This document shows positions 2-21,445 of a DNA stretch of 31,623 nt, piece after piece (the first letter of the stretch is position 1; every line of letters begins with the position of its first letter). The position numbers were made by a program, and so were the translations under genes. The DNA is from an uncultured Planctomycetia bacterium (GTDB taxonomy: Bacteria; Omnitrophota; Gorgyraeia; DAOVKU01). Location of the stretch: NCBI GenBank assembly GCA_964443705.1, contig CAYUDR010000002.1, positions 1 to 31,623 on the forward strand, in the 5' to 3' direction. The notes under the pieces are model-generated. The model searched no databases, was not told the DNA's origin, and saw only the letters and a list, made by a program, of their open reading frames with translations.

Positions 2-1255
2 TTTTTATTTTGCAGCATAAATTGTGCAAAAAAAGAAGAAGCTCTTAAAGATAAAACCTTAATCAAGGTTGCCTACTGGGGCAGCCCCGAAGAAGTTGAG
101 ATTATTACTGATACAATTAGTGCCTGGCAGAAAAATCATCCTGATATCTATGTTAAGTTGGAGCACACTCCCGGTAGTGATTATGTTAATAAACTTCTTA
201 CGCGTATCGCCGGTGGAGCGCCGCCTGATGTGGCCTTTACGGAAGTTAATATCTTTGTTACTTTCTCCAATAAAAATGTCTTTCTTGATTTAAGGCCCTT
301 TATAGAAAATGATGCGGAATTTAACTTAGATGACTTTTTTCCTGAGGTCGTGGATAGATTTAAAGTCGATGGCGGCATTTATGCTATTCCGCGCGATACA
401 GCGCCTTTTGCCTGCGTATATTACAATAAAAATCTTTTTGACCGGGCCGGTCTTCCCTACCCAACAGATGATTGGGATTGGAACGATTTATTAGAGAAAG
501 CTCAGAAATTAACAAAGACCGATGAAAAAGGCAGGACTATTCAATATGCTTTTTATGCCTGGGCATGGCAGAACTTCGTTTATTTTAACGGCGGAAAGGT
601 GGTAAACAACGTCAAAAAACCTACCAGATGCTTGCTTGACAAGCCCGGGGCAATTGAGGGTTTACAAATGTTTCAGGATTTATTCCATAAATACAAAGTA
701 GCCCCCACTCCCGCCGCCATGACTAATATGGGCATGGGTTCTAATCAGATGTTTATGACCGGACGCCTGGCTATGTATGGTTCTGGCATCTGGGAAACGC
801 CCGTTTTGCGAAAGATTAAAGACTTTGACTGGGATATTGTGATGTTTCCCAAAGGGCCCGGAGGAAAACGCGGTTTTGCAACAGGTGGTTCTGGATACAC
901 TATTCTTAAAAGCACCAAACATCCCCAGGAGGCCTGGGAAGTGGTGAAGGCCCTGGCGGCCGCCAAAGCACAAATAATGTTAGCCAAGACAGGGCTTGCC
1001 CAGCCAGCCAATAGAAAGATTGCTGAAGGCCCTTACTGGGCAGGCAGCAAAGAACAGCCCTTAAATAAAAGCATGTTAAATGAAGCCGTAAAATATGCCA
1101 TTTATGATCCTTTCAATACAAAATGGAGGGAGATACAAGATTTGTATATCTATCCTCAGATGGATTTGCTTTATAGCGGAGATATAAACGCCGAAGAATT
1201 TGCCAATAGGGTAGTGCCTGAAATTAATAAAATACTGCAAAGCACTTCAGAATAA
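2..1255 (+). CDS. Sugar ABC transporter substrate-binding lipoprotein (family 1), 5'-partial
   Basis: The frame is open from position 2 (FLFCSINCAKKEEALKDKTLIKVAYWGSPEE...), so the ORF-track start at 158 is internal. SBP motifs: IAGGAPPDVA, YYNKNLFDRAGLPYPTDDWDWNDL, FMTGRLAMY, WDIVMFP. Possible lipobox Cys near the window edge. Confidence 0.9.
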   Translation, partial: FLFCSINCAKKEEALKDKTLIKVAYWGSPEEVEIITDTISAWQKNHPDIYVKLEHTPGSDYVNKLLTRIAGGAPPDVAFTEVNIFVTFSNKNVFLDLRPFIENDAEFNLDDFFPEVVDRFKVDGGIYAIPRDTAPFACVYYNKNLFDRAGLPYPTDDWDWNDLLEKAQKLTKTDEKGRTIQYAFYAWAWQNFVYFNGGKVVNNVKKPTRCLLDKPGAIEGLQMFQDLFHKYKVAPTPAAMTNMGMGSNQMFMTGRLAMYGSGIWETPVLRKIKDFDWDIVMFPKGPGGKRGFATGGSGYTILKSTKHPQEAWEVVKALAAAKAQIMLAKTGLAQPANRKIAEGPYWAGSKEQPLNKSMLNEAVKYAIYDPFNTKWREIQDLYIYPQMDLLYSGDINAEEFANRVVPEINKILQSTSE

Positions 1256-1290
1256 ACAAAAAATTACCTTATTTTAACATAACTTTCCTC

Positions 1291-1319
1291 TTGACAATAC
1301 CCCCATCATGGGGTATTAT
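1291..1319 (+). promoter_or_regulatory. sigma70-type promoter for the PEP-CTERM gene
   Basis: TTGACA(1291-1296)-17 nt-TATTAT(1314-1319). The spacer carries the inverted repeat AATACCCC/GGGGTATT. Confidence 0.8.
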
Positions 1320-1333
1320 CTTTTACCAGTTAA

Positions 1334-1347
1334 GGTAAACGTTTTCC
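1334..1347. promoter_or_regulatory. LacI-family operator, copy 1
   Basis: GGTAAACGTTTTCC: palindromic with a central CG and A/T arms, just downstream of the -10. Confidence 0.75.
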
Positions 1348-1392
1348 CTAAATATAAAGGGCTTTTTAAAGCCCGTTTTTAAGGCACATTAA

Positions 1393-1406
1393 GGAAAGCG
1401 ATTTCC
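1393..1406. promoter_or_regulatory. LacI-family operator, copy 2
   Basis: GGAAAGCGATTTCC, with the same flanks as copy 1 (TTAAGG...TTTCCCTAAA). Confidence 0.7.
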
Positions 1407-1435
1407 CTAAAATTAAGAAAAGGAGGTGAAAAAGA

Positions 1436-2140: not shown

Positions 2141-2154
2141 TTCTCCAAAGACAT

Positions 2155-2353: not shown

Positions 2354-3553
2354 ATGAAAAAAGATTTTAAAATGAGAAATTTTTTAAGATGTTTTGTAGT
2401 TTGCGTCATTCTTTCTATGATTATATTTTCCTGGGGCTGTGCTTCTTTATCGCAGAAGGGCAAAGCGAAGGTAATACCGCAGGCTATTCTCAGTCAAAAT
2501 GAGAATTGCAGCAGGGTTTATGAATGGCTGAAGAACCTTCAGGTTCCTAACGGTCTCTTGGAGAGTTCAGACAACAGTAATTTTGTATCTCTGTATGATA
2601 ACTCCCTGGCAGCTATTGTGTTTTCAGCCAAAGGCGATTATAAGAGTGCCGAGATGATATTTGATTTTTTCAATTCCCGCATTGAAAGCGAACTCAAACA
2701 ATCTCCGGGTGGTTTTGGTCAGTTTCGCGACCGAAGGGGAATTCCGGCAGAAGGGAAACCGCATCGCTGGTTGGGAGATAATGCCTGGCTGCTTATAGCC
2801 ATAAATAATTACCATAAACTGTCCGGAAATAAAAAATATTCCCGGCTTGCCGAGGAACTTGAGGGCTGGATACGCTCACTGCAGGATGAAGCAAACGGAG
2901 GCCTCTGGAGTGGATTTGATAAAAATGGTAAAAGAATTGAAAAATCAACCGAAGGCATCATCGATTCCTTTAATGCAGTTAGCGGTTATGATTCTTTTCA
3001 CAGCAGGATACTTCAATATCTTGGAACACAATACTGGCAGCCCGATGAAAAAACATTCCTTGCCTGGAAAGAACATCCTAAATATAAATATGCCCTTGAC
3101 TTGCACTCCTGGGGATACAGTGGTTTTGAGAATATGCCACAGGCCCTAATTGAACAGGCCGATAAATTTCGCACGACAAAAATAGCTACTGTCAACGATA
3201 GAAATATAACAGGATTTTGTTTTGACCTGGATTTAGATAATATCTGGTTAGAGGGGACCGGAGAAATGGTTGTGGCTTATCGGAGCGCCGGGATGGACTT
3301 TATGGCAGAATACTATCTCAGGGAGCTTGAGAAAATGATTGTTTCTAGCTCAAAAAATCCTAAGCTGGGGGGAATTCCTTATGCTACCAACCCAGGCACA
3401 CATTACGGAACGGGCCGGTTATGGGATGGGGCAGATCGGTATCCCTGCATTGCCTCCTCTGCCTGGTATTTGTTAGGGAAATGGGGCTATGACCCAATGG
3501 AGGCAGGAAGAGATAAAAATATTCCCGCCCGGGATATGTTCTGGGTAAAATAA
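2354..3553 (+). CDS. Lipoprotein with uncharacterised (alpha/alpha)6 six-hairpin glycosidase-like domain (paralog 1)
   Basis: Lipobox FSWGC. Motifs YDNSL, WLGDNAWLLIA, TEGIID, DNIWLEGT, GIPYA and SAWYLL are shared with the ORFs at 5472 and 11560. The fold is inferred, not computed. Confidence 0.7.
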   Translation: MKKDFKMRNFLRCFVVCVILSMIIFSWGCASLSQKGKAKVIPQAILSQNENCSRVYEWLKNLQVPNGLLESSDNSNFVSLYDNSLAAIVFSAKGDYKSAEMIFDFFNSRIESELKQSPGGFGQFRDRRGIPAEGKPHRWLGDNAWLLIAINNYHKLSGNKKYSRLAEELEGWIRSLQDEANGGLWSGFDKNGKRIEKSTEGIIDSFNAVSGYDSFHSRILQYLGTQYWQPDEKTFLAWKEHPKYKYALDLHSWGYSGFENMPQALIEQADKFRTTKIATVNDRNITGFCFDLDLDNIWLEGTGEMVVAYRSAGMDFMAEYYLRELEKMIVSSSKNPKLGGIPYATNPGTHYGTGRLWDGADRYPCIASSAWYLLGKWGYDPMEAGRDKNIPARDMFWVK

Positions 3554-3600: not shown

Positions 3601-3629
3601 TTGACAAAAAGATTTAAGTATGTTATATT
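3601..3629 (+). promoter_or_regulatory. sigma70-type promoter
   Basis: TTGACA(3601-3606)-17-TATATT(3624-3629), with an extended TGn. Confidence 0.85.
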
Positions 3630-3640
3630 CCCTTTCACGA

Positions 3641-3657
3641 AGGAAAACGTTTTTCCT
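3641..3657. promoter_or_regulatory. LacI-family operator (probable autoregulation)
   Basis: AGGAAAACGTTTTTCCT between the -10 and RBS of the LacI gene; same motif as 1334 and 1393. Confidence 0.8.
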
Positions 3658-3670
3658 CGAGGGAGAAGGG

Positions 3671-4705
3671 ATGGCCTATACATATAAAGATATTGCCAGG
3701 AAAACAGGTGTTTCTATTACTACCATCTCAAGGGTAATAAACAAAAGGGACTTGCATAAAGTTGGTAAGAGGAGTCAGAAAAAAGTAGAGGCTGTAATAA
3801 AAAAACTGAACTTCACTCCCAATATAATCGCAAGGAGTTTAGTCAGTAGAAAGACTTTTAATATAGCCATAGCCATAAAAGACCTTGAAGATATAATTAA
3901 TCCTTATTTCAGCCAGGTAATAAGCGGTATCGCCTATGTTCTTGAACACAAAGGATATTACCTGCAGCTGGTAAGGACTATATCCAGCAAACAGCCCCCT
4001 CTTTCTCCATATTATCTTAAGGCTATTTGGGAAAAGAGGGTTGATGGACTCCTGTTATTGAGTGAAGAAGCAAAGGATAAAGAAGTAATTGAACTCTATA
4101 AAAAAAAGTTTCCCCTGGTTTTAATTAACAGGTATATAAAAGACAAAAATATACCCTCTATTTTAATTGATAATGAAAAAGGCGTTTATCTTGCCACAAA
4201 GGCCCTCATAGACCTGGGGCATGAGAAAATAGTTTTTATGAGTGGTGCTTTAAAATTCCAGCTGGACCAGGATAGGCTTAAAGGTTATAAAAAAGCGCTT
4301 TTGGAAAATAATATTAAATTTGATAAAGGGTTGGTAAGAGAAGGTTTTTTTGAATTTGATAAGACAACTTCTGCTCTCAGGCCCCTGCTTGAGCAAAAAA
4401 AGCCCTTTAGTGCTATAGTAGCTTCAGATGACGTGATGGCCCTGGCTTGTATTACCGCCTTGAAAAAAAAAGGCATGGCAGTGCCGGATGATATTTCGGT
4501 CATTGGCTTTAATGATATGTTGCTTGTGCCTGTGGCCTCACCCACGCTTTCGTCTATGAGATTGCCCTTGGCTGATATGGGTAAGGAAGCTGCACATATG
4601 CTGTTAGAGATAATAAACAAGGAAAAGCTAAAAAGAAAAACCATTACTTTTACTCCCGAATTAATAAAACGTGAATCTATCGCACCACATGAAAGTAAAA
4701 AATAA
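3671..4705 (+). CDS. LacI family transcriptional regulator
   Basis: HTH TYKDIARKTGVSITTISRVIN; hinge FTPNIIARSL; C-terminal PDDISVIGFND and PTLSSMRLP. I use the ATG at 3671 (RBS GGGAGAAGGG) because the ORF-track ATG at 3620 lies inside the promoter. Confidence 0.95.
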   Translation: MAYTYKDIARKTGVSITTISRVINKRDLHKVGKRSQKKVEAVIKKLNFTPNIIARSLVSRKTFNIAIAIKDLEDIINPYFSQVISGIAYVLEHKGYYLQLVRTISSKQPPLSPYYLKAIWEKRVDGLLLLSEEAKDKEVIELYKKKFPLVLINRYIKDKNIPSILIDNEKGVYLATKALIDLGHEKIVFMSGALKFQLDQDRLKGYKKALLENNIKFDKGLVREGFFEFDKTTSALRPLLEQKKPFSAIVASDDVMALACITALKKKGMAVPDDISVIGFNDMLLVPVASPTLSSMRLPLADMGKEAAHMLLEIINKEKLKRKTITFTPELIKRESIAPHESKK

Positions 4706-4721
4706 AAAAGGGGTGATGAAA

Positions 4722-5384
4722 ATGAAGAAAGTATTAACGCTGTTTATATTCCTGGTTTTGGCGTGGGGGGTAGGGACGGCGGGGTTTGCAGAAGAGGATT
4801 TGCTTATCACAGATTTTGAAAAACATCCTAATTGTCTTGGTGGACAGGTTGGTGTTTATGGAGCAGGTAATCCAAATTGGTCTAACACCGTAGAGCCCTA
4901 CAGCTGGTATTACACACCCGAGGTAAAAGATTACAAAAAGGAGAATGTGGTCAGCGGAAAACAATCATTCAGGCTGGTTAATGGAAATAGCCCGGACAGC
5001 GATGTGGGCTGGGCAAGTTTCGGACTCGATTTGGGCCCCATTCTTGATGCAAGCGTCGTTCCTATTAAGGTCGAGCCCGTCGATGTCAGCGGTTATAAGT
5101 ATCTTGTTTTCTGGGCTAAGGGAGAAAAGGGCGGTGAGAAGTTAATAATCAACTTCAGAGATGCCAACAGCATAAATTATATGCCGCAGTTTCAATACAA
5201 AGTAGAAAAGCCGCTTACTACCAAGTGGCAAAAGATTATAGTTCCCCTGGGCGATGTTTACAATGTTGATTTTAAAGGTTTAGTCCATACTGGGCTTGCC
5301 TTTGGCGTAGATGCCGACAATGAAATGGGCACTATAATTTATGTAGACGATTTTGCTTTTAGCAATAATCGTGCACTTCAGTAA
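4722..5384 (+). CDS. Secreted stand-alone carbohydrate-binding-like protein (CBM11/CIA30-like beta-sandwich)
   Basis: Signal peptide MKKVLTLFIFLVLAWGVGTAGFA; LITDFE...DVSGYKYLVFWAKG...KWQKIIVPL...IYVDDFAF; RBS AGGGGTGA supports the ATG at 4722 (4716 is an alternative). Confidence 0.75.
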   Translation: MKKVLTLFIFLVLAWGVGTAGFAEEDLLITDFEKHPNCLGGQVGVYGAGNPNWSNTVEPYSWYYTPEVKDYKKENVVSGKQSFRLVNGNSPDSDVGWASFGLDLGPILDASVVPIKVEPVDVSGYKYLVFWAKGEKGGEKLIINFRDANSINYMPQFQYKVEKPLTTKWQKIIVPLGDVYNVDFKGLVHTGLAFGVDADNEMGTIIYVDDFAFSNNRALQ

Positions 5385-5406
5385 TTACAAGAAAATTGTT
5401 GACTTG

Positions 5407-5443
5407 AGGCCCTTGAAATTTATTCAGGGGCCTTTTGTTTTTT
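5407..5443 (+). terminator. Intrinsic terminator
   Basis: AGGCCCTTGAA-attta-TTCAGGGGCCT followed by a T-rich tract. Confidence 0.75.
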
Positions 5444-5471: not shown

Positions 5472-7211
5472 ATGAAAAAAATATTTATACTTATTGTTCT
5501 TTTATTTTTTTTCACAAACACTAGTCTTGCGGGTAAAATGACAGGAGAAGTCCGGCCCGGACTTTCCAATGGGCTTTATAAATGGTTTAGTTGCCAGCAG
5601 GATAAAAACCGCTTTCTTTTATTTTTTTCAAGCGGCCTGGTTCCCAGTTATGAAGGCGGCAAGGATTGTTTTACTTATGATGAGGCATTATCTATTTTTG
5701 TTTTTACTCTCTATGGGGATTATGAACGGGCTAAAAAAATCCTTAAGTTCTATGACGGCGTTTATGAAAAACAAAAAGCGCGTTCTGGTAAATTTATGGG
5801 TTTTACGGATGTATATAAGAGAAATGGCAAAGAGACCGAAACCTGGGCCGCAGGCCCAAACGCCTGGCTTTTAATGGCTATTAATTACTATACTTATCAG
5901 ACAGATGATAGACAATTTCTGGATTTATCCAGGGCTATAGCGGATTGGTTAATATCTATTGAGGCAGTTGAAGGGGGGGTAACCGGTGGTTTCTTTGGTA
6001 ATGGTGAGCCCATGGCGTGGATATCATGTGAACATAATTTCGACTGCTTTGCGGCTTTCAGAGATTTATATATACTTACGCGCAATGAGAAATATGCCCG
6101 GGCAGCTGCCAGGACAAAAGAATGGCTGCTTAAAGGCGGGTGGAACGAGAAGGAGAGTAGATTTAATATGGGCAGTTTTAATCCCAATTATGCCACTGAT
6201 CTTTCCTCCTGGGCTGTTTTAAGCTTAGGAACCGAATTTACTCCTACCCTTTCCTTTGCGATTGACAAAGCACTCAATAAACAGTATTATGAAAAAAAGC
6301 AGATAGAAATCGAAGGTTTTGATTTTGGCGCTCCTTATATAAAGAGCCCTTATCCCGATAAAGACGCGGTATGGTTTGAAGGCACGGCTCACATGGTCCT
6401 GGCTTTTTATCTGGCAGGGCAAGCAAAAGAAGCCGATTACTTTTTAGGGCAGTTAAAAAAAGCTATTATAAAGAGTGATAGATACAAAGAAGCAGCCGGC
6501 CTGCCTTATGCTTCAAATAAAGGCACACCACCCTACGGCGGCTGGATGATGGAAGCTGGCCCCATATCGGTGGCGGCAAGCGCCTGGTATATATTTGCCA
6601 CAGAAAAATTTAATCCTTTTGATATGACAGGTAATTTAGAAGAGGTAAATAAAGAATTAGAAAATTTTGAGAAAAATACGGAATTTACTTTTTATCCTGT
6701 CATAGATAATTTTGAATATAAAAAAACACAACTTCTAAGCACTTATCCCAAAGATTTTATAATCTCCAGCGCCTTAACTGCTCAGCTTAATCTTTCGGAG
6801 GAGGCCAAAGAGGGACGAGGCGCTTTAGAAATTGATATAAAGACAGCGCCCACAGGAAAAGATTTTTCATTTTCTATTACCCGCCCCTTTGTGCATCGAC
6901 AGGATTGGTCTGGTTTTAAAAAATTGACTTTCTGGGTCAAGGCCAGCCAGCCATCTGCAGGCAAACTTAAAATTCAGATAAAGGATAAAGAAGGCGAATT
7001 GTGGGATTCTTATTTTATATATTTAAAAGATAACTGGCAAGAAGTAAAATTTGATTTAGCCGACGCCTTTAAAGAAAATAGAAATTACTTACCCGGCTAT
7101 GGCAATGATGAATTTGACACAGATGGTATAATAGCTTTACTATTGGTATTTAATTCTAATGAACCGGATAAAGAAATTAAAATACTGATAGATGAATTAA
7201 GATTGGAATAA
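5472..7211 (+). CDS. Secreted (alpha/alpha)6 glycosidase-like protein (paralog 2) with C-terminal CBM11/CIA30-like domain
   Basis: Signal peptide ending TSLA. Motifs YDEAL, AGPNAWLLMA, SCEHNFD, DAVWFEGT, GLPYAS, SAWYIFA..FNPF. C-terminal module VIDNFE...DWSGFKKLTFWVK...WQEVKFDL...ILIDELRL. Confidence 0.7.
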   Translation: MKKIFILIVLLFFFTNTSLAGKMTGEVRPGLSNGLYKWFSCQQDKNRFLLFFSSGLVPSYEGGKDCFTYDEALSIFVFTLYGDYERAKKILKFYDGVYEKQKARSGKFMGFTDVYKRNGKETETWAAGPNAWLLMAINYYTYQTDDRQFLDLSRAIADWLISIEAVEGGVTGGFFGNGEPMAWISCEHNFDCFAAFRDLYILTRNEKYARAAARTKEWLLKGGWNEKESRFNMGSFNPNYATDLSSWAVLSLGTEFTPTLSFAIDKALNKQYYEKKQIEIEGFDFGAPYIKSPYPDKDAVWFEGTAHMVLAFYLAGQAKEADYFLGQLKKAIIKSDRYKEAAGLPYASNKGTPPYGGWMMEAGPISVAASAWYIFATEKFNPFDMTGNLEEVNKELENFEKNTEFTFYPVIDNFEYKKTQLLSTYPKDFIISSALTAQLNLSEEAKEGRGALEIDIKTAPTGKDFSFSITRPFVHRQDWSGFKKLTFWVKASQPSAGKLKIQIKDKEGELWDSYFIYLKDNWQEVKFDLADAFKENRNYLPGYGNDEFDTDGIIALLLVFNSNEPDKEIKILIDELRLE

Positions 7212-10087: not shown

Positions 10088-10116
10088 TTGACAAATGAAT
10101 CATGAAATGGTATATT
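10088..10116 (+). promoter_or_regulatory. sigma70-type promoter
   Basis: TTGACA(10088-10093)-17-TATATT(10111-10116), with TGn. Confidence 0.85.
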
Positions 10117-11525: not shown

Positions 11526-11559
11526 ATACTAACTTAACCAAATAATGGGGGGCAAGACA

Positions 11560-13287
11560 GTGAATATTTATTTTAAAAGAAAGATTTTATTAATTAATCT
11601 ACTAGGTCTTATATTTTTTCTTGTGTCTATTTTGTTTTCGGGTTGCGCAAAGCGTGTTACTGTGCCCAGAGCTCTGCTTGAAGAAATCTGGGATGAAACC
11701 TCTCAATGGCAAGTGAGTAGTGACGGGAAAAGTATTATTGAAATACAATCTGTGCCAGTCAATGTCTTAAAGGGGCTGGAAATTAAATATACACTTAAAA
11801 GCGATCCTCATGGATGGGTATTAATCAGGAAAAAAATAGAGAGCATGCCTCCTGAGAATATCCCCATTATCTTTTTCATAAAAGCCGACTCATCTTCCGA
11901 TTTGGAAATTAAATTTGTCGATTCAGACGGCTCAATCTTTTTAAAAAAGATATCTATGGCGGGAAAGTATAAGGATTGGACGCAGGTTGTAGTTTATAAA
12001 GACAATCTTGAATATGGGTGGGGCGGAGATGCTGAATTTAACGGACTTGCGGAATTGGAATTGGCCATATCCGGAAAAGGCAGTGGGACAATATGGTTAG
12101 ATGAAATCGGTTTTGGAAATCCTGAATTAAGGCCTTCTTTTCTACCTGCCGGACCCTATCTCGACCCCAATAGAGAATTACGCGGAGTTGGGTTTAAACA
12201 GCGCCGGGCCGCAAAATTAATACCCGAAGACCCCCTTGTTCTTGAGTGGTTGAAACAGATGCAGGATAATTTTTCCCCGGAGCGTACCATACTACCTACT
12301 ACAGAAGACAACCAGGGCCACACGTTTAATAATTCTCTGGTGGCTATGGCCTTTATATTGGAAGGGGAAAAAGAGCGTGCTCAGCGTATTCTTGATTTTT
12401 ATGCTTCTGCCACTGTCAGAGAAAATCAAGACCCTACTCTGCAAAACTTCTTTTATAAAGGAGAGCCCAGAGGATTTTTCCAATCTGTAACAGTTAGGCC
12501 TGAAGGTAATATTCCGGCCTATCATAATCCCGGAAATAGTGATCGCTGGATAGGGGATATGGCGTGGCTGCTTATCGCCTATAAATATTATGAGAAGACA
12601 TATAATTCTGATAGATATAACAAAATAATAAATCTTTTAAAAAATTTACTGATTTCCTGGTATAAGGATGCAGATGGCGGTCCCGGTGGTTATATACAAC
12701 ACGGCTGGAGAAGAGGCGACAGTTATCTGCATGAAAATTATGGCCATCCCGAAGGCAATATCGATTGCTATGCCGCTTTTAAACTTTGCGGTGAAGAGGA
12801 ATATGCCAGGAAGATAAAGCTGTGGTTGGATAGAGTCCTTGGAGGAAAGAGCTTGCCATTAGATTTATATACATGGAGAGTTCTGGCTTATGGCAAGGAT
12901 TATGCCGACCTTTTAAATATTCCCGAATACGACCTTAGATATCGTAAGACCCTGAAGGTAAAAGGTAAAAAGGTCATGGGTTTTTATCATTCTCCGGATA
13001 TTAGCATAGACAATATCTGGCTTGATGGCACAGGTCATATTGCCTGCGCCTATGTCGTCCTGAGTGATCAACAAAGGGGTTATTTCTACGCCAATCAGCT
13101 GGATGCATTTTTAATTGACAGGAATATCAACGGAGTAAAGACACGAACTTTCCCTTATACAGCTAATACACAGGGCGGATTTGATGGATTTAATCAAGAT
13201 AAAGGTTTTATATCAGTTGCGGCCTGGTATATATTTGCCAAAAACGGCTTTAATCCTCTCGCGTTTGAAAGCAATTCTCCCGAGTAA
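11560..13287 (+). CDS. Lipoprotein: N-terminal CBM11/CIA30-like domain plus (alpha/alpha)6 glycosidase-like domain (paralog 3)
   Basis: Lipobox LFSGC; N-terminal module ends GTIWLDEIGF; motifs FNNSL, WIGDMAWLLIA, PEGNID, DNIWLDGT, FPYTA, AAWYIFA..GFNP. The GTG at 11560 follows a GGGGGG RBS; the ATG at 11545 is an alternative. Confidence 0.7.
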   Translation: MNIYFKRKILLINLLGLIFFLVSILFSGCAKRVTVPRALLEEIWDETSQWQVSSDGKSIIEIQSVPVNVLKGLEIKYTLKSDPHGWVLIRKKIESMPPENIPIIFFIKADSSSDLEIKFVDSDGSIFLKKISMAGKYKDWTQVVVYKDNLEYGWGGDAEFNGLAELELAISGKGSGTIWLDEIGFGNPELRPSFLPAGPYLDPNRELRGVGFKQRRAAKLIPEDPLVLEWLKQMQDNFSPERTILPTTEDNQGHTFNNSLVAMAFILEGEKERAQRILDFYASATVRENQDPTLQNFFYKGEPRGFFQSVTVRPEGNIPAYHNPGNSDRWIGDMAWLLIAYKYYEKTYNSDRYNKIINLLKNLLISWYKDADGGPGGYIQHGWRRGDSYLHENYGHPEGNIDCYAAFKLCGEEEYARKIKLWLDRVLGGKSLPLDLYTWRVLAYGKDYADLLNIPEYDLRYRKTLKVKGKKVMGFYHSPDISIDNIWLDGTGHIACAYVVLSDQQRGYFYANQLDAFLIDRNINGVKTRTFPYTANTQGGFDGFNQDKGFISVAAWYIFAKNGFNPLAFESNSPE

Positions 13288-13361: not shown

Positions 13362-14408
13362 ATGACAGTAACCATTAAAGATATTGCCAGAGAAGCGGGT
13401 GTTTCTCCTGCCGCTGTTTCAAAGGCCTTGAATAATCGAGGCGGCATAAGCCTTCCTTTGAAGCGCAAGATTGAGAAAATTGCCCACAGAAGAGGCTACG
13501 CTCCTTATATTAAAGCCAGGCAGACCGGCATGTATGCCCCCGTCTTAAGATATATTGCTGTAATCTATGCCTATGCCGGTGAACATTTAATAAAAGATAT
13601 TCAAAATGGGATTGATACCGTCTTGCGGGATTCGGGATTTTACGAATTAAGATACAGCGTGAATATATACAGCCAGTTATATGATGAAGAACGCAAAGAA
13701 ATCTTTATTGATAAAATCCTGCAGGATAAAAGTATAGCGGGCCTGATGTCTGTTTTTTTAAAACTTTCCGATTCCGTTATCGCTAAGCTACGCAAGCATG
13801 GTATACCTGTTGTATTACTCAATAATTACTCAGATTACGGCAAGTGTGTGTTTGTTGATAATGTCGAAGCTGGTTCCCAGGTCGCCAGGACCTTAATTAA
13901 ATTGGGCAGAAAAAAAATCGGCATTATTATGCCTGAGGAATCAAGCGAGACTATCTGGGAGCAAAGGCTTGCGGGGTTCAAGTTGGCTCTTAGTGAAGCC
14001 CATATTACCTATGATCCCTATTTACTGGTTTATGAGCATTCCTTTTCTTTAGAAGAAGCGGCCCAGGCCACAAAAACACTTTTAGAAAAAGAACCGGAAA
14101 TTGATGCCATTATTTATGGAAGTGATATCCAGGCCTACGGCGGCATGGAGGCGCTTCGGGAAATGGGCAAGAAGATTCCGGAAGATGTCGCTGTGATTGG
14201 CTTTGATAATATGACTTTTAGCCGAATAACGGATCCTCCTCTGTCAACTGTCAGGCAGCCGATGCTTGAAATGGGCAAGGAAGGCGCCCGCATGCTTCTT
14301 GAGGCCATAAAGAAAAAAGATTTTTCGCATCAGGCAATAAAATTAAAAAGTCAGTTAATCTTAAGGCAATCTACTCACAAAGACATTGCAAAAGAAAAAT
14401 TGTTATGA
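13362..14408 (+). CDS. LacI family transcriptional regulator (atypical hinge)
   Basis: HTH TIKDIAREAGVSPAAVSKALN; PEDVAVIGFDN and PPLSTVRQP; hinge YAPYIKARQT lacks the conserved Leu. Confidence 0.93.
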   Translation: MTVTIKDIAREAGVSPAAVSKALNNRGGISLPLKRKIEKIAHRRGYAPYIKARQTGMYAPVLRYIAVIYAYAGEHLIKDIQNGIDTVLRDSGFYELRYSVNIYSQLYDEERKEIFIDKILQDKSIAGLMSVFLKLSDSVIAKLRKHGIPVVLLNNYSDYGKCVFVDNVEAGSQVARTLIKLGRKKIGIIMPEESSETIWEQRLAGFKLALSEAHITYDPYLLVYEHSFSLEEAAQATKTLLEKEPEIDAIIYGSDIQAYGGMEALREMGKKIPEDVAVIGFDNMTFSRITDPPLSTVRQPMLEMGKEGARMLLEAIKKKDFSHQAIKLKSQLILRQSTHKDIAKEKLL

Positions 14409-14519: not shown

Positions 14520-15095
14520 GTGTTTAAGAATTTGATAATTTGTTTTTTGGTACTTCTGGCCTTTAGTTTTTTAGGTCCGGTGAGTTGGGCTACAATTTTA
14601 GTGGTTGATGATTTTGATAGCGGCTTGCCCGGCAATAATGTCGGCGGAGAAACCGGCGCCTGGAGTTGTAATCCGGAAGATTCCGAACAATTCTGCAAGA
14701 TGGAACTGATAGATGTCGAAAGAGTAGGGGATACAGGCTTTTGTTTAAAGCTAACCTATGATGTTGGTATTTCCCAGACAGCTTGCAACGGCTATTGGTC
14801 TTTGCTTAACGGGTTGGATGTCTTCGACTATGAATGCCTTTCGTTCCGGGTTAAAGGTGACAAAAATACCGGACACACAACTACCTTTTGGGTTGAGCTA
14901 AAAGATCCTGTTAACACTTCCAGAGTCCAGATAACAGGCATAACTGATGAGTGGCAGAAAATAAAAATATCACAGGAGAAATTTACCAATATCCACGATT
15001 GGGTCAATTTAACTGAACTTATGATTATCTTTGACCACACAGCCACTGCCAAAGAAGGCGTTATCTATATAGATAATATTGGTTTTGAACAGTAG
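14520..15095 (+). CDS. Secreted stand-alone CBM11/CIA30-like protein
   Basis: Signal peptide; VVDDFD...NNVGG...CLKLTYDV...LSFRVKGD...ITDEWQKIKI...KEGVIYIDNIGF; GTG start with RBS GAGGTGA. Confidence 0.78.
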   Translation: MFKNLIICFLVLLAFSFLGPVSWATILVVDDFDSGLPGNNVGGETGAWSCNPEDSEQFCKMELIDVERVGDTGFCLKLTYDVGISQTACNGYWSLLNGLDVFDYECLSFRVKGDKNTGHTTTFWVELKDPVNTSRVQITGITDEWQKIKISQEKFTNIHDWVNLTELMIIFDHTATAKEGVIYIDNIGFEQ

Positions 15096-15178: not shown

Positions 15179-15790
15179 ATGAGAAGACTCGGTTTTTTAC
15201 TTTTGTTTATAGCGCTTGCCTTTTTACTTTTAACGTCTTTGTTAAAAGCAGAGGATATTTTGATGGTTGATGATTTTAATGACCAGGAAAAACCCAACAA
15301 CTTAAAAGGCGACTATGGTTCATGGGAAACATTTCCCCAAGACGACACCCAGGGCTGCTTTGAATCGGTAGTTGGCAGCCAGCGAGGGCCGTGCCTGCAA
15401 CTCGATTACGATGTGGATTCGTCAAGTCAAGAAGAGGCCTATAACGGCTTCTGGACAAAGTTAATGTATGAGGATATTTCAAAGTATAAATATCTTATCT
15501 TCTGGGTGAGGGGTGATGCAGACAGAGGATTTACTACAGAATTTTATGTTGAGTTATGGAACAAGAAAAGAGAAAATATGAGATATAAAATTATAGGGCT
15601 CACAGATACCTGGCAGGAAATTAAACTTAATTTTGATGATTTCGAAACCCGTACCGAAAAACCTGTAGATTTAACAGAAATGGAAGAATTCGTTATTGTA
15701 TTTGACGATGAAACGGCCACGGTCAAAGAAGGAAGAATTTATATAGATGATATTTATTTTGGTGCAGCGCAAGACGCGATGCCATTATAA
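15179..15790 (+). CDS. Secreted stand-alone CBM11/CIA30-like protein (tandem paralog of 14520)
   Basis: Signal peptide; MVDDFN...NNLKG...CLQLDYDV...LIFWVRGD...LTDTWQEIKL...KEGRIYIDDIYF; RBS GGAGGTGA. Confidence 0.78.
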   Translation: MRRLGFLLLFIALAFLLLTSLLKAEDILMVDDFNDQEKPNNLKGDYGSWETFPQDDTQGCFESVVGSQRGPCLQLDYDVDSSSQEEAYNGFWTKLMYEDISKYKYLIFWVRGDADRGFTTEFYVELWNKKRENMRYKIIGLTDTWQEIKLNFDDFETRTEKPVDLTEMEEFVIVFDDETATVKEGRIYIDDIYFGAAQDAMPL

Positions 15791-15798: not shown

Positions 15799-17742
15799 TT
15801 GGTGGAATTTAAAAAGTTTTATTTTGGCTTTTTTTTGATCTTATTATTTTTAATTTTTGGTTGCGCGGCTCCGCGGATAAAGAAAATCCCGATTGAAAAG
15901 GCACAGAAAAGCCAATTTATGATAGTAGATGATTTTAATAGCGGAAGTGAGCCGAATAAACTTGGAGGCGGCCAGTTAATCGAACTTACGCCGGGTGCGG
16001 CTTGTTCATCCATTTACATTAAAGAGGATGCTTTCCGTGGCTACTCTGTAAAAATTGATTATCAACTCGTCGCCGGCTCACGGTGTTTGTGGGGTATGGA
16101 TTTAGAAAATTTAGATGCCAGCGCCGCGCAAAGAATAATTTTTATCCTCAAACATAAAAAAGATATTCCTTTAAGCGTTGGCTTGGAAGATGGAGCTGGT
16201 AATTTAGCGGTTTTGCCTTTGCCTCCGGCTGATTTAAAAGATAAAGAATGGGTTACCGTTGCACTTAGCCTCAATGAATTTAAAGATATTGACTTAAATG
16301 ACTTAAAATATTTTAAATTAATCTTTGAATCACGAAAAAAATCCCTTAAATCCATAACTTATATCGATGAAGTAAAATTCTTTGGACCAAGGCAACTGCT
16401 TTTTTTGTCACTTAAAGATAATTTATTTGGTTTTCCCGAGAAGGTTTTAGATAAAAGAAGAAGAAAACGTCTTTTAAAATTGAAAAATAAGGCTATCTTT
16501 AAGGAAATTGCCAGAGACGCCTGGGGATATTTTGATAAAACAGTTGATAAGAAAAATCATCTTGTCCTTGATTATATTCAGGTTGTTCCAGAGCCTATTA
16601 TCGGCGATTATACTTCGCCGACCAATATCGGGCTTTATCTAGTTGCTGTCATTTCGGCTTATGATCTGGGATTTATATCTGAAGAGGATGCCCTCTTACG
16701 CATTAAGGCTACTCTGGATATCCTAAGAGAACTTCCCAAATATAGCGGTTTTCTTTATAATTACTATAATACTTCTAATCTTCATATTACCCGGGAGTAT
16801 ATTTCCTCCGTAGATTGCGGCTGGCTGGCGGCGGCCTTGATAGTGGTGCGTCAATCCTTTGGCGGCAAGTTTTACCCACAAGCAACGCAGTTACTTGAGG
16901 AAATGGATTTTTCTTTTTTCTATGACAAATATCTTGGCCAGCTCAACTTAGGTTATGAGACAGATAAGAAGACCTTTACTCCTTATCATTATGGTTTTAT
17001 TGCCAGTGAAGCTAGGATAGCTTCTTTTGTAGGCATAGGTATGGGCGATTTACCAAAAAGGCATTGGTTTAAGATAAGGCGCACGCCTCCGGCAGAGTGG
17101 AACTGGCCCAGCCAGAAACCAAAAGGGGAATACAAAGAATATCTGGGTGAAGAGGTATTTGAAGGCTACTATAGTTATGGAGATTTGAAGGTAGTCCCAA
17201 GCTGGGGCGGGAGCATGTTTGAGTTTTTGATGCCGGTTTTATTTATAGATGAGATTAAGCTTGCGCCCGAAGGTCTTGGTTTAAATGATATCCTGGCTAC
17301 TAAAGCGCAGATTAAATTAGCTGAGGAGAAAGGTTATGCGGTTTGGGGATTTTCACCCTCCTCTAACCCGCAGGGTGGATATAAAGAATATGGAGTTAAG
17401 CAAATAGGCATTACAGGCTATGCGGAGGGTGTAGTTACGCCTCACGCGGCCTTCCTTGGCCTTTTAACATTGAGAGAAGAAGCGGTAGATAACATAAGAA
17501 AAATGATAAGCGACTATGAAATTTACGGTGAGTATGGGCCTTACGATTCTTTTGATGTAAAAAGTGGAAAGGTATCCTACAAATATCTTGCGCTGGACCA
17601 AGGTATGCTTTTAATTGCCTTAAACAACTATTTAAACGAGGGCGCAATTCAAAAGAGATTTTACGCCGACCCTATAGCGCAAAAAGCCAAAGAAGTTTTA
17701 AAAATAGAAAAGTTCCCCTGGGCGGGTGAATATATTAAATAA
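15799..17742 (+). CDS. Lipoprotein: CBM11/CIA30-like domain plus GH144/GH189-like (DUF3131/glucoamylase-like) putative beta-1,2-glucan-active domain
   Basis: Lipobox LIFGC; motifs YTSPTNIG, YISSVDCGWL, ASEARIASF, SWGGSMFEFLMP, WGFSPS, GVVTPHA, YLALDQGM; RBS GAGGAGG (TTG 15799 or GTG 15802). Confidence 0.8.
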   Translation: MVEFKKFYFGFFLILLFLIFGCAAPRIKKIPIEKAQKSQFMIVDDFNSGSEPNKLGGGQLIELTPGAACSSIYIKEDAFRGYSVKIDYQLVAGSRCLWGMDLENLDASAAQRIIFILKHKKDIPLSVGLEDGAGNLAVLPLPPADLKDKEWVTVALSLNEFKDIDLNDLKYFKLIFESRKKSLKSITYIDEVKFFGPRQLLFLSLKDNLFGFPEKVLDKRRRKRLLKLKNKAIFKEIARDAWGYFDKTVDKKNHLVLDYIQVVPEPIIGDYTSPTNIGLYLVAVISAYDLGFISEEDALLRIKATLDILRELPKYSGFLYNYYNTSNLHITREYISSVDCGWLAAALIVVRQSFGGKFYPQATQLLEEMDFSFFYDKYLGQLNLGYETDKKTFTPYHYGFIASEARIASFVGIGMGDLPKRHWFKIRRTPPAEWNWPSQKPKGEYKEYLGEEVFEGYYSYGDLKVVPSWGGSMFEFLMPVLFIDEIKLAPEGLGLNDILATKAQIKLAEEKGYAVWGFSPSSNPQGGYKEYGVKQIGITGYAEGVVTPHAAFLGLLTLREEAVDNIRKMISDYEIYGEYGPYDSFDVKSGKVSYKYLALDQGMLLIALNNYLNEGAIQKRFYADPIAQKAKEVLKIEKFPWAGEYIK

Positions 17743-18191: not shown

Positions 18192-18233
18192 GTGTTTGGT
18201 TTTAAAAATAGAGATAAAAGAGAGAGAAGTGAA

Positions 18234-19801
18234 ATGTATTTTAAGAAAATATTTATTTTGACTTTTTTTATATTATTAGCGCCTTTGACGGCAATGGCTG
18301 AGCCTATAATTAATATTGTTGATTATCCACAAGATGAAAGGTATAACGCAACCAACCCCTATTTCGCAGAATTGGTTGCTATTGATGTAGAAAAAATCAA
18401 AGTTAAATTTTTACCAGTCAACATCAAAAGCTATCTTAATAACGATGGTTTATCGTCAAGAAGAGATTATAAAAAGGCCGATTTTGACGGGGAAGGTAAT
18501 TCTATCAGCAAAAGGCGCCTTCCGCCAATTGGCAGGATTTTTAAGGTCGGCAAAGAAAGGCTTAAATTGCAGTTAAGTGAAGTTAAATCAAATGACAACA
18601 TAGCCTGTAAAGGACAGGTAATCGGCGTAGAGCCACGCTCTTATACCGCTGCCTATTTTCTTATGGCTTCTACCAAAGGAGATGCGGCCGCCAAGCTCAA
18701 ACTGCAATACGGTGATGGCTCGAGTGAGGAATTATATTTTGCCCCCGCTATTTCCGACTGGAGAACGCCCCCTCTCTTTACCGAAGCGCAATTTCCTCCC
18801 ACTACCATAAATACGCCTTATAAATTAACTAAAGAGCCGGCTTATGTCGCCTTGATAAAAGTGCCTGTTTCAGGGACCAAGATTTTAAAAGCCATAAAAT
18901 TACCTGATATTCCTCGCGTGCATATTTTTGCCATTACCCTCGAAGAGGGCGGCCCGGTGAAAAATTGTCTTTATGAGCCCGGGCTTTCTCCTAAAGCAGG
19001 CCATATCAGTTCAGGTCAGGAAAAGAGTGGAGAGAGCTTAAGTCCATTAAAAATATCATTGATTTTGAAGGACGCCCCGCTTTTGGAATGAACGAAGAAT
19101 CAGTCGGCTATGCCTTTTGCAAGATATTATCTAATAAAGACCAGATAGTGCTGTTTAAACTGAGAAGCGACGATGGCATCAAAGTCTAGTTAAACGGTGA
19201 AAATATTATTACCAATAATGTTGCTCGTGGACTGGGAACGGAAGAGGATATTGTAACCGCTTATTTAAGAAAGGGCGAGAATAAACTTCTCATAAAAGTA
19301 AGCGACCATTATGGCGGTTGGGGTTTCGAGTGCGATTTAGTTTCTATAGACGGCAGTGAAATAGCCGGTTTAAAATTTAAACCTGCCGCCCTTTCACTTA
19401 AAAGAATACCGGTAAAAAATATTACCGCTTCTTCTATTCAGGGCGGAAACAGCAATTTATATAACCCCCTTTATGCAGTCGATGCTGATGAGAAAACACG
19501 CTGGAGCAGCCAGCATGCCGACCCACAGTATGCTACTATTGAGTTTAACAAAAAAGAGAAATTAAAAAGAATAGACCTTTTATGGGAAACCGCCTATGCT
19601 AAAAAATATGTTTTAAGCACCTCTTTAGACGGCGAAAACTGGCAGGAAATTTATTCCACGGATTCTGGTAAAGGAGGCTGTGAAGTTATTCCCTTAAAGG
19701 AACCCGTAGAGGCAAAACTTTTAAAATTACTTACCTTAGAAAGAGGCACCGACTGGGGTTATTCTCTGTGGGAAATTGAAATCTACGGGAAAAAACAATA
19801 G
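18234..19801 (+). pseudogene. Disrupted secreted multi-domain carbohydrate-binding protein (beta-sandwich + PA14-like + F5/8 type C/CBM32)
   Basis: Signal peptide at 18234. A TCAGG tandem duplication (19011-19020) shifts the frame. The shifted frame reads SGKEW...RSDDGIKV*LNG (TAG 19187-19189, at the W of the PA14-like SDDGxKVWLNG motif)...GENKLLIKV...AVDADEKTRWSS...WETAYAKKY...SLDGENW...WGYSLWEIEIYG, stop 19799-19801. Confidence 0.85.
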
Positions 19802-19872
19802 AAAATTTGCTTAGTTTTCAACAACAAAAAAAGCGCATGCTAATAATTGCACATCCAGCCGAGACAGATAGG

Positions 19873-19884
19873 CCTGCCGGCAGG
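19873..19884. repeat. Short GC palindrome (REP-like)
   Basis: CCTGCCGGCAGG, single copy, intergenic. Confidence 0.35.
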
Positions 19885-19890
19885 TAGGGC

Positions 19891-19919
19891 TTGAAAAATA
19901 GACACCCTGAAGGTATAAT
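19891..19919 (+). promoter_or_regulatory. sigma70-type promoter
   Basis: TTGAAA(19891-19896)-17-TATAAT(19914-19919). Confidence 0.85.
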
Positions 19920-19946
19920 AAATATATAAGTTAATGGGGGTGTAAA

Positions 19947-20858
19947 ATGTCAAAAAGGTATTTAATTTTTAGTGTTCTATTTGGTGTAATTATTTTTTGC
20001 GTTGGCACTGCTTTCAGCGACACGGTTTATTTTAATAATCATAAACTTGAAGGACGTATAGTGGAAGAGACACCGGCTCATGTAGTAATAGAGACGTCCA
20101 TCGGCAGCGCAACCATCACCAAAGATAGAATTACAAAAATTGAACGTCTTAGCCAGGAAGAAAACTTTTTAAAGATGGGGGACAATCAATTTAAGCAAAA
20201 ACGCTATAACGCCGCTATGGACTATTATAATAAAGCCCTTGAAGTTAACCCCGAATATGAAAAAGCTAAGGCGGCGCTGGCTAAAGTCAAAGAAATTAGG
20301 GAAGAAATCGCTCAACTGCGAAAACTTGAACTTGAGCGTCAAAAGAAACAAAGAGAGAAGAAAAAAGAAGAATTAAAAAAGAAAATAGGTATGGTGGTTG
20401 ATGAAATAGATGGAAAGTTCGAAGTTGTTAATGTGGTAAAAGATTCTCCCAGCGACCGCGCTCAAGTCAAAGTCCATGACCGTATTATGAGCATCGACGG
20501 CTCTTCCACTAAAGACATGAGCCTGGAAAAAGCCTGGGAAAAGCTTTCGGGCAAAAGGCCCATAACACTTACTATCGAACGCGAGGTGGATGTATTGAGA
20601 AAACGGATTGAATACAGAAAAAGGAGTTTTGTAGGCATAGGCATGTTTTTTGATACGGACAATGAAGGTCTTTTTGTTAGCAGCGTTATTGAAGGTGAGT
20701 CGGCTGATAAAGCCGGGCTGGGGAGTGGGGATAGAATTATTAGTATAAACGGTAAACCCACCAAAGGCCTTGGCCTGGATGAAGCCGCAGAACTTATTGG
20801 CGATGGAGAATTGAGTAAAGTTAACATTGTCATAAAAAAAGACGTTAAGATAGAATAG
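19947..20858 (+). CDS. Exported TPR plus tandem PDZ domain protein
   Basis: Signal peptide; TPR-like GDNQFKQKRYNAAMDYYNKALEVNPEY; PDZ motifs VVKDSPSDRA...DRIMSIDG and FVGIG...VIEGESADKAGL..GDRIISING; no protease domain seen. Confidence 0.8.
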   Translation: MSKRYLIFSVLFGVIIFCVGTAFSDTVYFNNHKLEGRIVEETPAHVVIETSIGSATITKDRITKIERLSQEENFLKMGDNQFKQKRYNAAMDYYNKALEVNPEYEKAKAALAKVKEIREEIAQLRKLELERQKKQREKKKEELKKKIGMVVDEIDGKFEVVNVVKDSPSDRAQVKVHDRIMSIDGSSTKDMSLEKAWEKLSGKRPITLTIEREVDVLRKRIEYRKRSFVGIGMFFDTDNEGLFVSSVIEGESADKAGLGSGDRIISINGKPTKGLGLDEAAELIGDGELSKVNIVIKKDVKIE

Positions 20859-21445
20859 TGAAAAAGGTAGTTTTTGTATTTCTTTTTGTTTATGTCGTTT
20901 TTTTCGCGAGTATTGCTTTCACCGATTATCTTTCCATTGACACTTTTGATGATGAGGTCAGGCCGAATAATCTGGGCGGTGATTATGGAATTTGGTCGCT
21001 GGATTGGGATGATTCAACTCAGAGTTGCCGGATGTACCATGATAGGTTTGAGAAGTTAAATGATAGAGGTGCCTCGGTAAAGATAGTATACGATGTTGAT
21101 TCTAAAAATAAGGCCGCCTGCGGCTTTTTTACCATTTTGAGCGGTGTAGATTTAAGTGAATTTAATCGGTTAGTTTTTTATATCAAAGGAGACGAAAAGC
21201 AAGGTTTTACCGAGAGCCTGGAAGTTGAAATTTCAAATCCCACCGAGGTAAGTAGATATTTAGTTAATGATATAACCGATAAGTGGCAGAGAAAAGTAAT
21301 ACCGCTGGCTAATTTTAAGAGGATATCCGATTGGTCTAATATAACCAAGTTTGCTATTGTTATTGAAGATAATAATGTGACCAAAAAAACCGGCGTTATT
21401 TATATTGACGATATTTACTTCTCCGACTCTGGAAGGGCTATGTAG
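20858..21445 (+). CDS. Secreted stand-alone CBM11/CIA30-like protein (paralog of 14520 and 15179)
   Basis: Signal peptide; IDTFDD...NNLGGDYG...KIVYDV...LVFYIKGD...ITDKWQRKVI...KTGVIYIDDIYF; GTG overlaps the upstream TAG. Confidence 0.78.
   Translation: MKKVVFVFLFVYVVFFASIAFTDYLSIDTFDDEVRPNNLGGDYGIWSLDWDDSTQSCRMYHDRFEKLNDRGASVKIVYDVDSKNKAACGFFTILSGVDLSEFNRLVFYIKGDEKQGFTESLEVEISNPTEVSRYLVNDITDKWQRKVIPLANFKRISDWSNITKFAIVIEDNNVTKKTGVIYIDDIYFSDSGRAM

Follow-up and report, generated by a model that had tools for sequence, protein, structure and literature searches.

A probable LacI-regulated beta-1,2-glucan catabolic locus with carbohydrate-binding and PEP-CTERM proteins in a lake-water Omnitrophota genome

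Beta-1,2-glucans serve many Gram-negative bacteria as symbiosis, virulence and osmoprotection molecules, and their degradation has been worked out only since 2014 and in few lineages. Carbohydrate use is also barely described for the Omnitrophota, which are ultra-small, possibly host-dependent bacteria. Here, we analyze a stretch of 31,623 nucleotides from an uncultured member of this phylum (hereafter the window), focusing on a putative glycan-utilization locus that occupies positions 2-21445 and continues beyond them. The closest described systems are beta-1,2-glucan clusters. Cluster IALB_1177-1187 of Ignavibacterium album contains two GH144 enzymes and a TonB-dependent transporter (PMC8861115), and further clusters have been described in Chloroflexus aurantiacus (Chy400_4165-4178) and Listeria innocua (lin1839-1843) (PMC13731917, PMC3960220).

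The window combines in one place the components that characterize these clusters: an enzyme of the SGL clan, a GH94 phosphorylase, an ABC sugar-binding protein (SBP) and a GH35 homologue of the I. album enzyme IaSGT. From its sequence, we consider it probable that the window holds a LacI-regulated catabolic locus for beta-1,2-glucan, linear or cyclic, in a small-genome lake-water Omnitrophota bacterium, with the roles of the four core proteins assigned by homology and synteny. Because three independent enzymes (the SGL-clan lipoprotein 15799-17742, the GH94 and the GH35) indicate beta-1,2-glucan, this is the best-supported substrate, and a suggestion that the initial annotation had offered as a guess is now well supported.

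The window is one whole contig (C2) of an assembly of 1.34 Mb in 206 contigs, estimated to be 89.5% complete. The closest named relatives of several of its proteins are from Omnitrophota metagenome-assembled genomes, and near-identical DNA is present in lake-water and other freshwater metagenomes; a search of sequencing runs for RNA data matched only DNA metagenomes of these kinds (lake, other freshwater). Genes were inventoried from the listing of open reading frames (ORFs) with Pfam and NCBIfam, and signal peptides and lipoboxes (FSGC, IFGC, WGC) were read directly from the sequence. All 25 sizeable ORFs of the window lie on the + strand, including all 18 genes of 2-21445, and the gene unit runs past both ends of that interval. 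Both the co-orientation and the signal peptides, lipoboxes and PEP-CTERM tails predicted in the initial annotation are thereby confirmed. Within 2-21445 are five secreted small beta-sandwich proteins, two PEP-CTERM proteins and four (alpha/alpha)6 proteins that are exported or lipid-anchored. The features on which the argument turns, several of them related to carbohydrate-binding modules (CBMs), are as follows.

2-1255, + strand: ABC sugar-binding lipoprotein, the SBP (SBP_bac_1, Pfam E 2e-43); 5' end cut by the contig end, with the first ~14 codons beyond it
1291-1409, + strand: promoter-like site (1291-1319), then twin 20-bp LacI-type operators (1331-1350 and 1390-1409)
1436-2140, + strand: secreted CBM4_9-like protein with a PEP-CTERM tail (27.2 bits, cut-off 20.7; TIGR02595 above cut-off)
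2354-3553, + strand: lipoprotein, (alpha/alpha)6 barrel of an unnamed family (paralogue A)
3620-4705, + strand: LacI-family regulator, with an operator (3639-3658) in its leader
4671-5384, + strand: secreted stand-alone CBM11/CBM30-like protein; likely start near 4722, strong terminator downstream (5406-5434)
5472-7211, + strand: secreted (alpha/alpha)6 barrel, unnamed (paralogue B); CBM11-like module at the C-terminus
7224-9599, + strand: cytoplasmic GH94 phosphorylase (PF06165, 262 bits; PF17167, 362 bits)
10179-10733, + strand: secreted stand-alone CBM4_9-like protein (sub-threshold CBM_4_9, 22.7 bits), with a promoter-like site at 10088-10116
10757-11377, + strand: CBM4_9-like protein with a PEP-CTERM tail (PEP-CTERM above cut-off, CBM_4_9 sub-threshold)
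11545-13287, + strand: lipoprotein with an N-terminal beta-sandwich and an unnamed (alpha/alpha)6 barrel (paralogue C)
13362-14408, + strand: second LacI-family regulator
14520-15095 and 15179-15790, + strand: two secreted stand-alone CBM11-like proteins
15799-17742, + strand: lipoprotein; CBM11-like module at the N-terminus, plus an (alpha/alpha)6 domain of the SGL clan (PF10091, DUF3131)
20858-21445, + strand: secreted stand-alone CBM11-like protein
21757-22767, + strand: third LacI-family regulator, beyond 2-21445
22788-24953, + strand: cytoplasmic GH35, IaSGT homologue, beyond 2-21445

The initial annotation counted four unknown barrel enzymes. Four (alpha/alpha)6 proteins are indeed present, and one of them, 15799-17742, is an SGL-clan enzyme. 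It matches PF10091 (E 7e-20), and its top match in the PDB is 8wy1 (E 2e-52), the GH189 cyclization domain of Cgs, the synthase that makes cyclic beta-1,2-glucan, with further matches to GH144/GH192-type SGLs (8xuj, 5gzh and 8xul). The general acid/base Glu is kept, in an ASEAR motif aligned with E1356 of TiCGS, and this shared residue together with the sequence matches establishes kinship with the SGL clan (clan GH-S: GH144, GH162, GH189 and GH192-194). Membership in GH189 itself is ruled out, as the nucleophile Glu, the His and the family insertion are all missing. The GH189 nucleophile is E1442 of TiCGS, in the motif WG-x-S-E-S (PMC10834661), and 15799-17742 reads WGFSPSS, with Pro in place of this Glu. 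In addition, His1536 of GH189 is replaced by Leu, with an Asp adjacent. A long alpha5 and extra helices between alpha4 and alpha5 form the GH189-specific insertion (PMC12102758), and this segment of ~170 residues (8wy1 chain 141-313) has no counterpart in 15799-17742. The nucleophile Glu is absent from 10/10 aligned stand-alone relatives from Omnitrophota, Neomarinimicrobiota and Phycisphaerae; 4/4 aligned true Cgs domains keep it along with the His-His pair. These traits fit the published description of GH193 (the SkSGL group), an inverting glucanase family next to GH189, the comparison being with that description, in which the GH193 structure is a predicted one (PMC12102758). Thus, 15799-17742 has the (alpha/alpha)6 SGL-clan fold family and the acid Glu in common with the 8wy1 domain; unlike that cyclization domain, it is a stand-alone lipoprotein, and a probable beta-1,2-glucanase. 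A true GH144 with an N-terminal hydrophobic segment is encoded elsewhere in the genome (contig C1, L022:7808-9064; 8xul, E 1e-78). It stands alone amid housekeeping genes, an arrangement seemingly kept in the relatives G001 and G028.

The GH35 at 22788-24953 aligns over its full length with IaSGT (IALB_1185, PDB 7vkw) at E 1.3e-173, and the next GH35 group scores 6.8e-78, which identifies it as an IaSGT-type enzyme. The GH94 at 7224-9599 aligns over its full length with GH94 structures and is a clear member of the family. It scores 470 bits with cellobiose phosphorylase and 459 bits with the GH94 domain of Cgs, a lean of only 11 bits towards the former, compared with 88 bits (462 vs 374) for a GH94 paralogue on contig C29. 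A peptide-pattern scan of 185,579 species genomes returned orthologues at 41-53% identity that include the I. album protein at 47%, and the matches below them are all Cgs proteins of ~2900 aa at 33-38%. The window's GH94 therefore probably acts on beta-1,2-glucooligosaccharides. A third GH94 lies on contig C76 (L019), beside a GLMA-type GH35 and a PEP-CTERM protein, and the genome's single GH3 lies on contig C136, away from the locus.

Conservation was searched across 151 genomes of the class. SBP orthologues (52-87% identity) occur in 36 and GH94 orthologues in 34, and in 14 of the 36, spread over five families, the two are direct neighbors at a distance of 24-90 bp. Stand-alone CBM11-like homologues lie beside the SBP-GH94 pair in G020, G028, G011, G035, G063, L046 and L047, and those of G020, G028, G011, G063, L046 and L047 follow it. 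Genes for GH35 and/or proteins like 15799-17742 belong to the same cluster in G020, G035, G063, G093, L048, L053 and L091, the GH35 being present in G020, G063 and G093. The core gene set is thus a conserved module, and the expectation that the gene set would recur in relatives holds for the SBP-GH94 core with its CBM11-like, GH35 and SGL-clan genes. It is not borne out for the PEP-CTERM part, which is at the locus in the window's genus only. In that genus, genes for a PEP-CTERM protein, barrel A, a LacI regulator, a stand-alone CBM and barrel B stand between the SBP and GH94 genes, and this placement is the best argument that the five inserted genes work with the module.

The proposed flow from envelope enzymes through an ABC binding protein to a cytoplasmic GH94 fits both the localization signals and the published clusters (PMC8861115, PMC13731917). 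As the initial annotation had surmised, SusC and SusD appear to take no part in it: neither a SusC/TonB-dependent receptor (PF00593) nor SusD (PF07980) was found in the 89.5%-complete genome, and Bacteroides controls were positive. The locus accordingly lacks the SusC-like transporter and SusD-like protein by which a polysaccharide-utilization locus of the Bacteroidota type is recognized. The ABC permeases of the SBP were not found in the fragmented assembly. Candidates on contigs C121 and C165 are oligopeptide-type, those on C16 and in L048 are ParA/ParB, and the sugar-type permeases of contig C24, the only ones found, belong to another locus. The relative G020 has permeases after a second binding protein.

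BLAST and profile comparison divide the small proteins into two families. The CBM4_9-like family comprises 1436-2140, 10179-10733 and 10757-11377, and 10179-10733 is paralogous to both PEP-CTERM proteins (E 4e-8 with 1436-2140). The stand-alone CBM11-like proteins are 4671-5384, 14520-15095, 15179-15790 and 20858-21445. Their profile is strong for the last three and weaker for 4671-5384 (E 8e-11) and for the modules fused to two enzymes, N-terminally in 15799-17742 (E 1.5e-9) and C-terminally in barrel B (E 3e-5), and the N-terminus of barrel C is tied to this module by hhalign only (94%). An earlier reading in which three barrels are fused to the same CBM-like module therefore stands for two of them by profile and for barrel C only distantly. 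Pfam recognizes CBM_11 in barrel B (30.6 bits, cut-off 27), the window's stand-alone copies fall below the cut-off (18-21 bits), and many of their relatives carry PF03425. For the predicted model of 15179-15790 (pLDDT 93), the best PDB fold match is CtCBM11 (Foldseek E 3e-10; TM-score 0.74-0.76 depending on the target; 18-19% sequence identity), and the model has the same beta-sandwich fold as this CBM11 of Clostridium thermocellum Lic26A-Cel5E (PDB 1v0a, 6r31). Unlike the enzyme module CtCBM11, most copies here are free secreted proteins. The stand-alone CBM11-like family counts 31 clusters and is nearly confined to Omnitrophota. That the window's CBM-like proteins bind glycan is what we infer, and because the CBM11-like genes keep company with beta-1,2-glucan genes, their ligand is likely different from that of CtCBM11. 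The literature searched yielded no dedicated CBM for beta-1,2-glucan. A GH9 on another contig of the genome (C47, L021:172-2964; 930 aa, with a CelD_N domain) also carries an N-terminal beta-sandwich like that of barrel C, which indicates that this type of sandwich is reused on enzymes for other glucans.

Barrels A (2354-3553), B (5472-7211) and C (11545-13287) are paralogues with 27-29% identity by BLAST and have no Pfam, NCBIfam or PDB sequence match in the barrel part. The AlphaFold2 model of barrel A is an (alpha/alpha)6 barrel (pLDDT 92.4) whose best PDB folds are MmpH, cellobiose 2-epimerases and GH76 (TM-score 0.55-0.59, 10-14% identity). A place in the SGL clan was rejected for it, with no clan member among the top 50 fold matches. 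Homologues of barrel A form 512 clusters, all labelled hypothetical, and those of barrel B form 1276 representative clusters at E<=1e-3 in a family that spans many architectures. Across 133 diverse members, residues D82, D249 and E300 (2354-3553 numbering) reach at least 90% conservation, a pattern compatible with a glycosidase family.

Regulation is visible in the form of 20-bp palindromes at 1331, 1390 and 3639, which share one motif and precede the first PEP-CTERM and first LacI genes, starting 10-12 bp downstream of near-consensus promoters (11-of-12 matches). The promoter at 1291-1319 and the operators at 1331 and 1390 are letter-identical in the sister genome G001, against only 36-87% identity for the proteins of the locus. 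Since the operator at 3639-3658 lies in the leader of the LacI gene annotated at 3620-4705, its real start is probably 3671. The motif was seen at these two promoters only, and no operator was recognized for the second LacI (13362-14408). Of the two LacI regulators with visible operators reported previously, one motif with three sites thus stands and the second regulator is left without a visible site. The proposal of a PEP-CTERM gene in a sugar-regulated setting is upheld, given the position of 1436-2140 behind LacI-type operators.

Both window cargo proteins, 1436-2140 and 10757-11377, score above cut-off with PF07589 and TIGR02595, and the genome encodes the matching machinery. It contains two exosortase genes (PF09721), each followed by EpsI, and one of these pairs, which the initial annotation had suggested seeking elsewhere in the genome, adjoins the locus. 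Contig C78 (L128), in reverse complement, ends with the ribosome-binding site and first four codons (MKFT) of an SBP gene. MKFT is the SBP start in G001, and the window begins about ten codons further on. Contig C24 was rejected as the join to the window start in favor of C78, which carries the SBP start codon. Towards the SBP, C78 encodes a partial GT2, an AraC/PocR protein, a PilZ protein, a membrane protein, a TPR lipoprotein, exosortase and EpsI. In G001, the order exosortase-EpsI-SBP-PEP-CTERM is found on a single contig, with three PEP-CTERM genes after the SBP, two of them CBM-like. The third of these (L126:18600-19763) is a GH2_C-like TIM-barrel enzyme with its own PEP-CTERM tail. A block of exosortase-EpsI-SBP-GH94-(CBM11-like)-AraC-PilZ-GH35 recurs in G028, G063 and G093, of one family, and in G119, of another, and exosortase/EpsI stands directly upstream of the SBP in three families in all. 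Among the 14 genomes with both an SBP orthologue and an exosortase, the two are adjacent in 5, plus the window's own genome by inference.

Of the about ten PEP-CTERM proteins of the genome, four are small and CBM4_9-like, and glycoside-hydrolase loci on C2, C24, C38 and C76 contain or adjoin PEP-CTERM genes. The C24 locus (L018, 1-12782) encodes three GH2_C-like TIM barrels, a GH5 with CBM6, a CBM-like PEP-CTERM protein, four small secreted proteins of no assigned family and two sugar ABC permeases. On C38 (L020), a CBM4_9-like PEP-CTERM gene is beside a stand-alone CBM11-like gene. Proteins of ~210 aa combining PEP-CTERM and CBM_4_9 are common in Planctomycetota and Verrucomicrobiota, and the look-alikes of 10757-11377 fall in such clusters from Planctomycetota, Verrucomicrobiota and Pseudomonadota. 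Literature searches on PEP-CTERM with CBM or polysaccharide utilization, and on Omnitrophota with GH94, found nothing relevant.

These observations can be assembled into a model for the locus. The envelope-anchored SGL-clan glucanase (15799-17742) would cut the polymer, with a separate GH144 encoded elsewhere in the genome, and the resulting oligomers would be imported in an SBP-dependent manner. GH94 would then release glucose-1-phosphate, which the nearby phosphoglucomutase may feed into glycolysis, and sophorose would be handled by the GH35. The CBM11-like module, both fused to the glucanase and as free secreted protein, would bind the same soluble glucan, and the CBM4_9-like PEP-CTERM proteins, processed by the exosortase encoded just upstream, would hold glucan at the cell surface. 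The first PEP-CTERM gene would be turned on once a LacI repressor comes off the twin operators. As for the three unnamed (alpha/alpha)6 enzymes, they may act on the same glucan or its decorations. It is tempting to extend this model to exosortase-coupled glycan capture, in which an ultra-small diderm with its own exosortase/EpsI pair, sugar-repressed PEP-CTERM binders, a beta-1,2-glucan-specific CBM11 branch deployed as free proteins and a new three-copy glycoside hydrolase family would collect soluble beta-1,2-glucans (cyclic or periplasmic) that stem from other bacteria, and would do so without a TonB receptor. This extension is tentative, and we think it rather doubtful.

Several observations weigh against assigning the whole locus to beta-1,2-glucan catabolism. 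The SBP is closer to an arabino-oligosaccharide binder than to Lin1841 (E 4e-12), the known binder of beta-1,2-glucooligosaccharides (Sopn), and no outer-membrane importer was identified in the genome. The PDB search scores the GH94 as well with cellobiose phosphorylase as with Cgs, and the peptide patterns used in the genome scan could favor a Cgs-like group. Orthologues of barrel A occur in unrelated or glycosyltransferase/methyltransferase contexts, where no glycan link was found. For the exosortase part, 22 of the 36 genomes with an SBP orthologue have no exosortase match, so a conserved exosortase-dependent utilization system is not borne out, and outside the window's genus no PEP-CTERM ORF was found in the locus. 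The exosortase block also borders genes of the exopolysaccharide (EPS) type (GT4, epimerase, GT2), and its adjacency may reflect neighborhood rather than function.

Some of this evidence would suit a composite island that does not form one system. In such an island, a conserved beta-1,2-glucan module would alternate with separate modules dedicated to other glycans, and the latter would comprise the unnamed barrels together with the CBM4_9-like PEP-CTERM proteins and LacI regulators of their own. The three LacI genes, several promoter-like sites and terminators, and the restriction of the operator motif to two promoters would be expected of such an island. So would the similarly built loci for other substrates on C24, C76 and C38, and the locus of a barrel B orthologue elsewhere, where the barrel is accompanied by a stand-alone CBM, a GH2-like enzyme and two LacI genes and there is no GH94. 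However, the insertion separates precisely the two genes, SBP and GH94, that are direct neighbors in 14 other genomes, barrel B is only 12 bp from GH94, and the CBM11-like module is common to barrel B, the SGL-clan enzyme and the stand-alone proteins; we regard a composite island as unlikely. Another alternative is that the cell uses the locus to build or remodel a glucan of its own, in the envelope or outside the cell, in connection with the adjoining EPS/exosortase genes. GH94 would then work in the direction of synthesis, and the SGL-clan lipoprotein would trim chains or transfer them. The GT2, GT4 and epimerase genes and the PilZ protein at the exosortase block are in keeping with this, as are the full-length (~2900 aa) Cgs-like frames of the relatives G005 and G029 and a 2080-aa protein of G039 (contig C4, L041:9279-17584). 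The latter has a C-terminal GH94 and a ~1300-aa unannotated N-terminus, adjoins a nucleophile-less homologue of 15799-17742, and may be a split synthase or another catabolic variant. The window's own genome has no recognizable GT84 part of Cgs, and because of this absence, the LacI regulators and the uptake binding protein, which are typical of catabolism, we favor catabolism over synthesis. Proteins like 15799-17742 also lack the GH189 transglycosylation nucleophile, and the characterized homologues are described in degradation clusters (PMC8861115, PMC13731917). Synthesis or remodelling of periplasmic glucans, which the initial annotation had kept as an alternative, is thereby weakened and appears improbable. 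Poorer still is the case for cellodextrins or mixed-linkage beta-glucan as the substrate, with GH94 as a cellobiose phosphorylase and the CBM11-like proteins as binders of beta-1,4 or beta-1,3-1,4 glucan. In its favor, the GH94 has a cellobiose phosphorylase as its top PDB match; the stand-alone module has its best fold match in CtCBM11, a binder of beta-1,4 and mixed-linkage glucans that was matched in a complex with the latter; and the genome also encodes GH9 and GH5. Against this, the locus has no cellulase and its sole recognizable endo-enzyme belongs to the SGL clan, the GH35 is orthologous to IaSGT, the GH94 clade includes the enzyme of the I. album beta-1,2-glucan cluster, and a more cellobiose-phosphorylase-like GH94 is present elsewhere in the genome, which together make a cellodextrin locus very improbable.

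The remaining features of the window lie between or beyond the genes considered above.

9657-9983, + strand: small 108-aa protein, kept in G001 (91%)
18192-19091, + strand: secreted 299-aa protein
19947-20858, + strand: exported TPR protein with two PDZ domains
28469-29830, + strand: phosphoglucomutase/phosphomannomutase

The 299-aa protein matches only residues 588-803 of an 886-aa G001 protein and is followed by 855 bp without ORFs; because of both, it may be a gene remnant. The co-oriented genes at 25210-31169 encode acetate kinase, a sugar nucleotidyltransferase with hexapeptide repeats, a HAMP protein, the phosphoglucomutase and a regulator combining a GntR helix-turn-helix with a periplasmic-binding fold. 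Glucose-1-phosphate might be converted as far as acetate by a route that includes the phosphoglucomutase and acetate kinase.

If true, beta-1,2-glucan catabolism at this locus extends the pathway to Omnitrophota. The CBM11-like proteins would be candidates for the first carbohydrate-binding module for beta-1,2-glucan, and the large unnamed (alpha/alpha)6 family, with its 1276 representative clusters, may be a new glycoside hydrolase family. Moreover, if exosortase sorting is tied to sugar catabolism both physically and by regulation, PEP-CTERM proteins would have a part in nutrition in addition to their EPS and biofilm contexts.

Compared with EPS systems of the XrtA-EpsI-PrsT type, the genome has the same PEP-CTERM tails, exosortase/EpsI pairs, TPR lipoprotein and accompanying glycosyltransferases. 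Unlike in those EPS-linked sorting systems, one exosortase/EpsI pair is the immediate neighbor of a sugar-catabolic locus (in three families), LacI-type operators stand before at least one of the PEP-CTERM cargo genes, and four of the about ten cargo proteins are small CBM4_9-like proteins that occur in glycoside-hydrolase loci. With the I. album cluster, the locus shares a GH94 (here probably of the Cgs C-terminal type), an IaSGT-type GH35, an exported SGL-clan endo-enzyme, an ABC binding protein and, adjacent to GH94, a LacI-type regulator. The endo-enzyme here differs from the I. album GH144s in being a GH189-like, nucleophile-less SGL-clan protein with a CBM11-like module, and no counterpart of the TonB-dependent transporter was found. 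Stand-alone CBM-like proteins, PEP-CTERM proteins, an exosortase and three unnamed barrels come in addition. ABC import of beta-1,2-glucan or its oligomers followed by cytoplasmic GH94 phosphorolysis is likewise a feature of the Chloroflexus and Listeria clusters, and the former also has a GH35 IaSGT homologue. These two clusters include a GH3 beta-glucosidase, which here is on another contig, and have neither CBM-only proteins nor an exosortase; the SBP is not close to Lin1841 of Listeria. A new type of system, as first proposed, is therefore only partly what the locus represents. In its enzymatic core, it belongs to a kind of beta-1,2-glucan cluster that has been described before and is found here in a further phylum. 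What is new are the unusual, lineage-specific extras: stand-alone CBM11-like proteins with SBP-GH94, PEP-CTERM binders under operator control, the exosortase next to the locus and the three barrel enzymes of an unnamed family.

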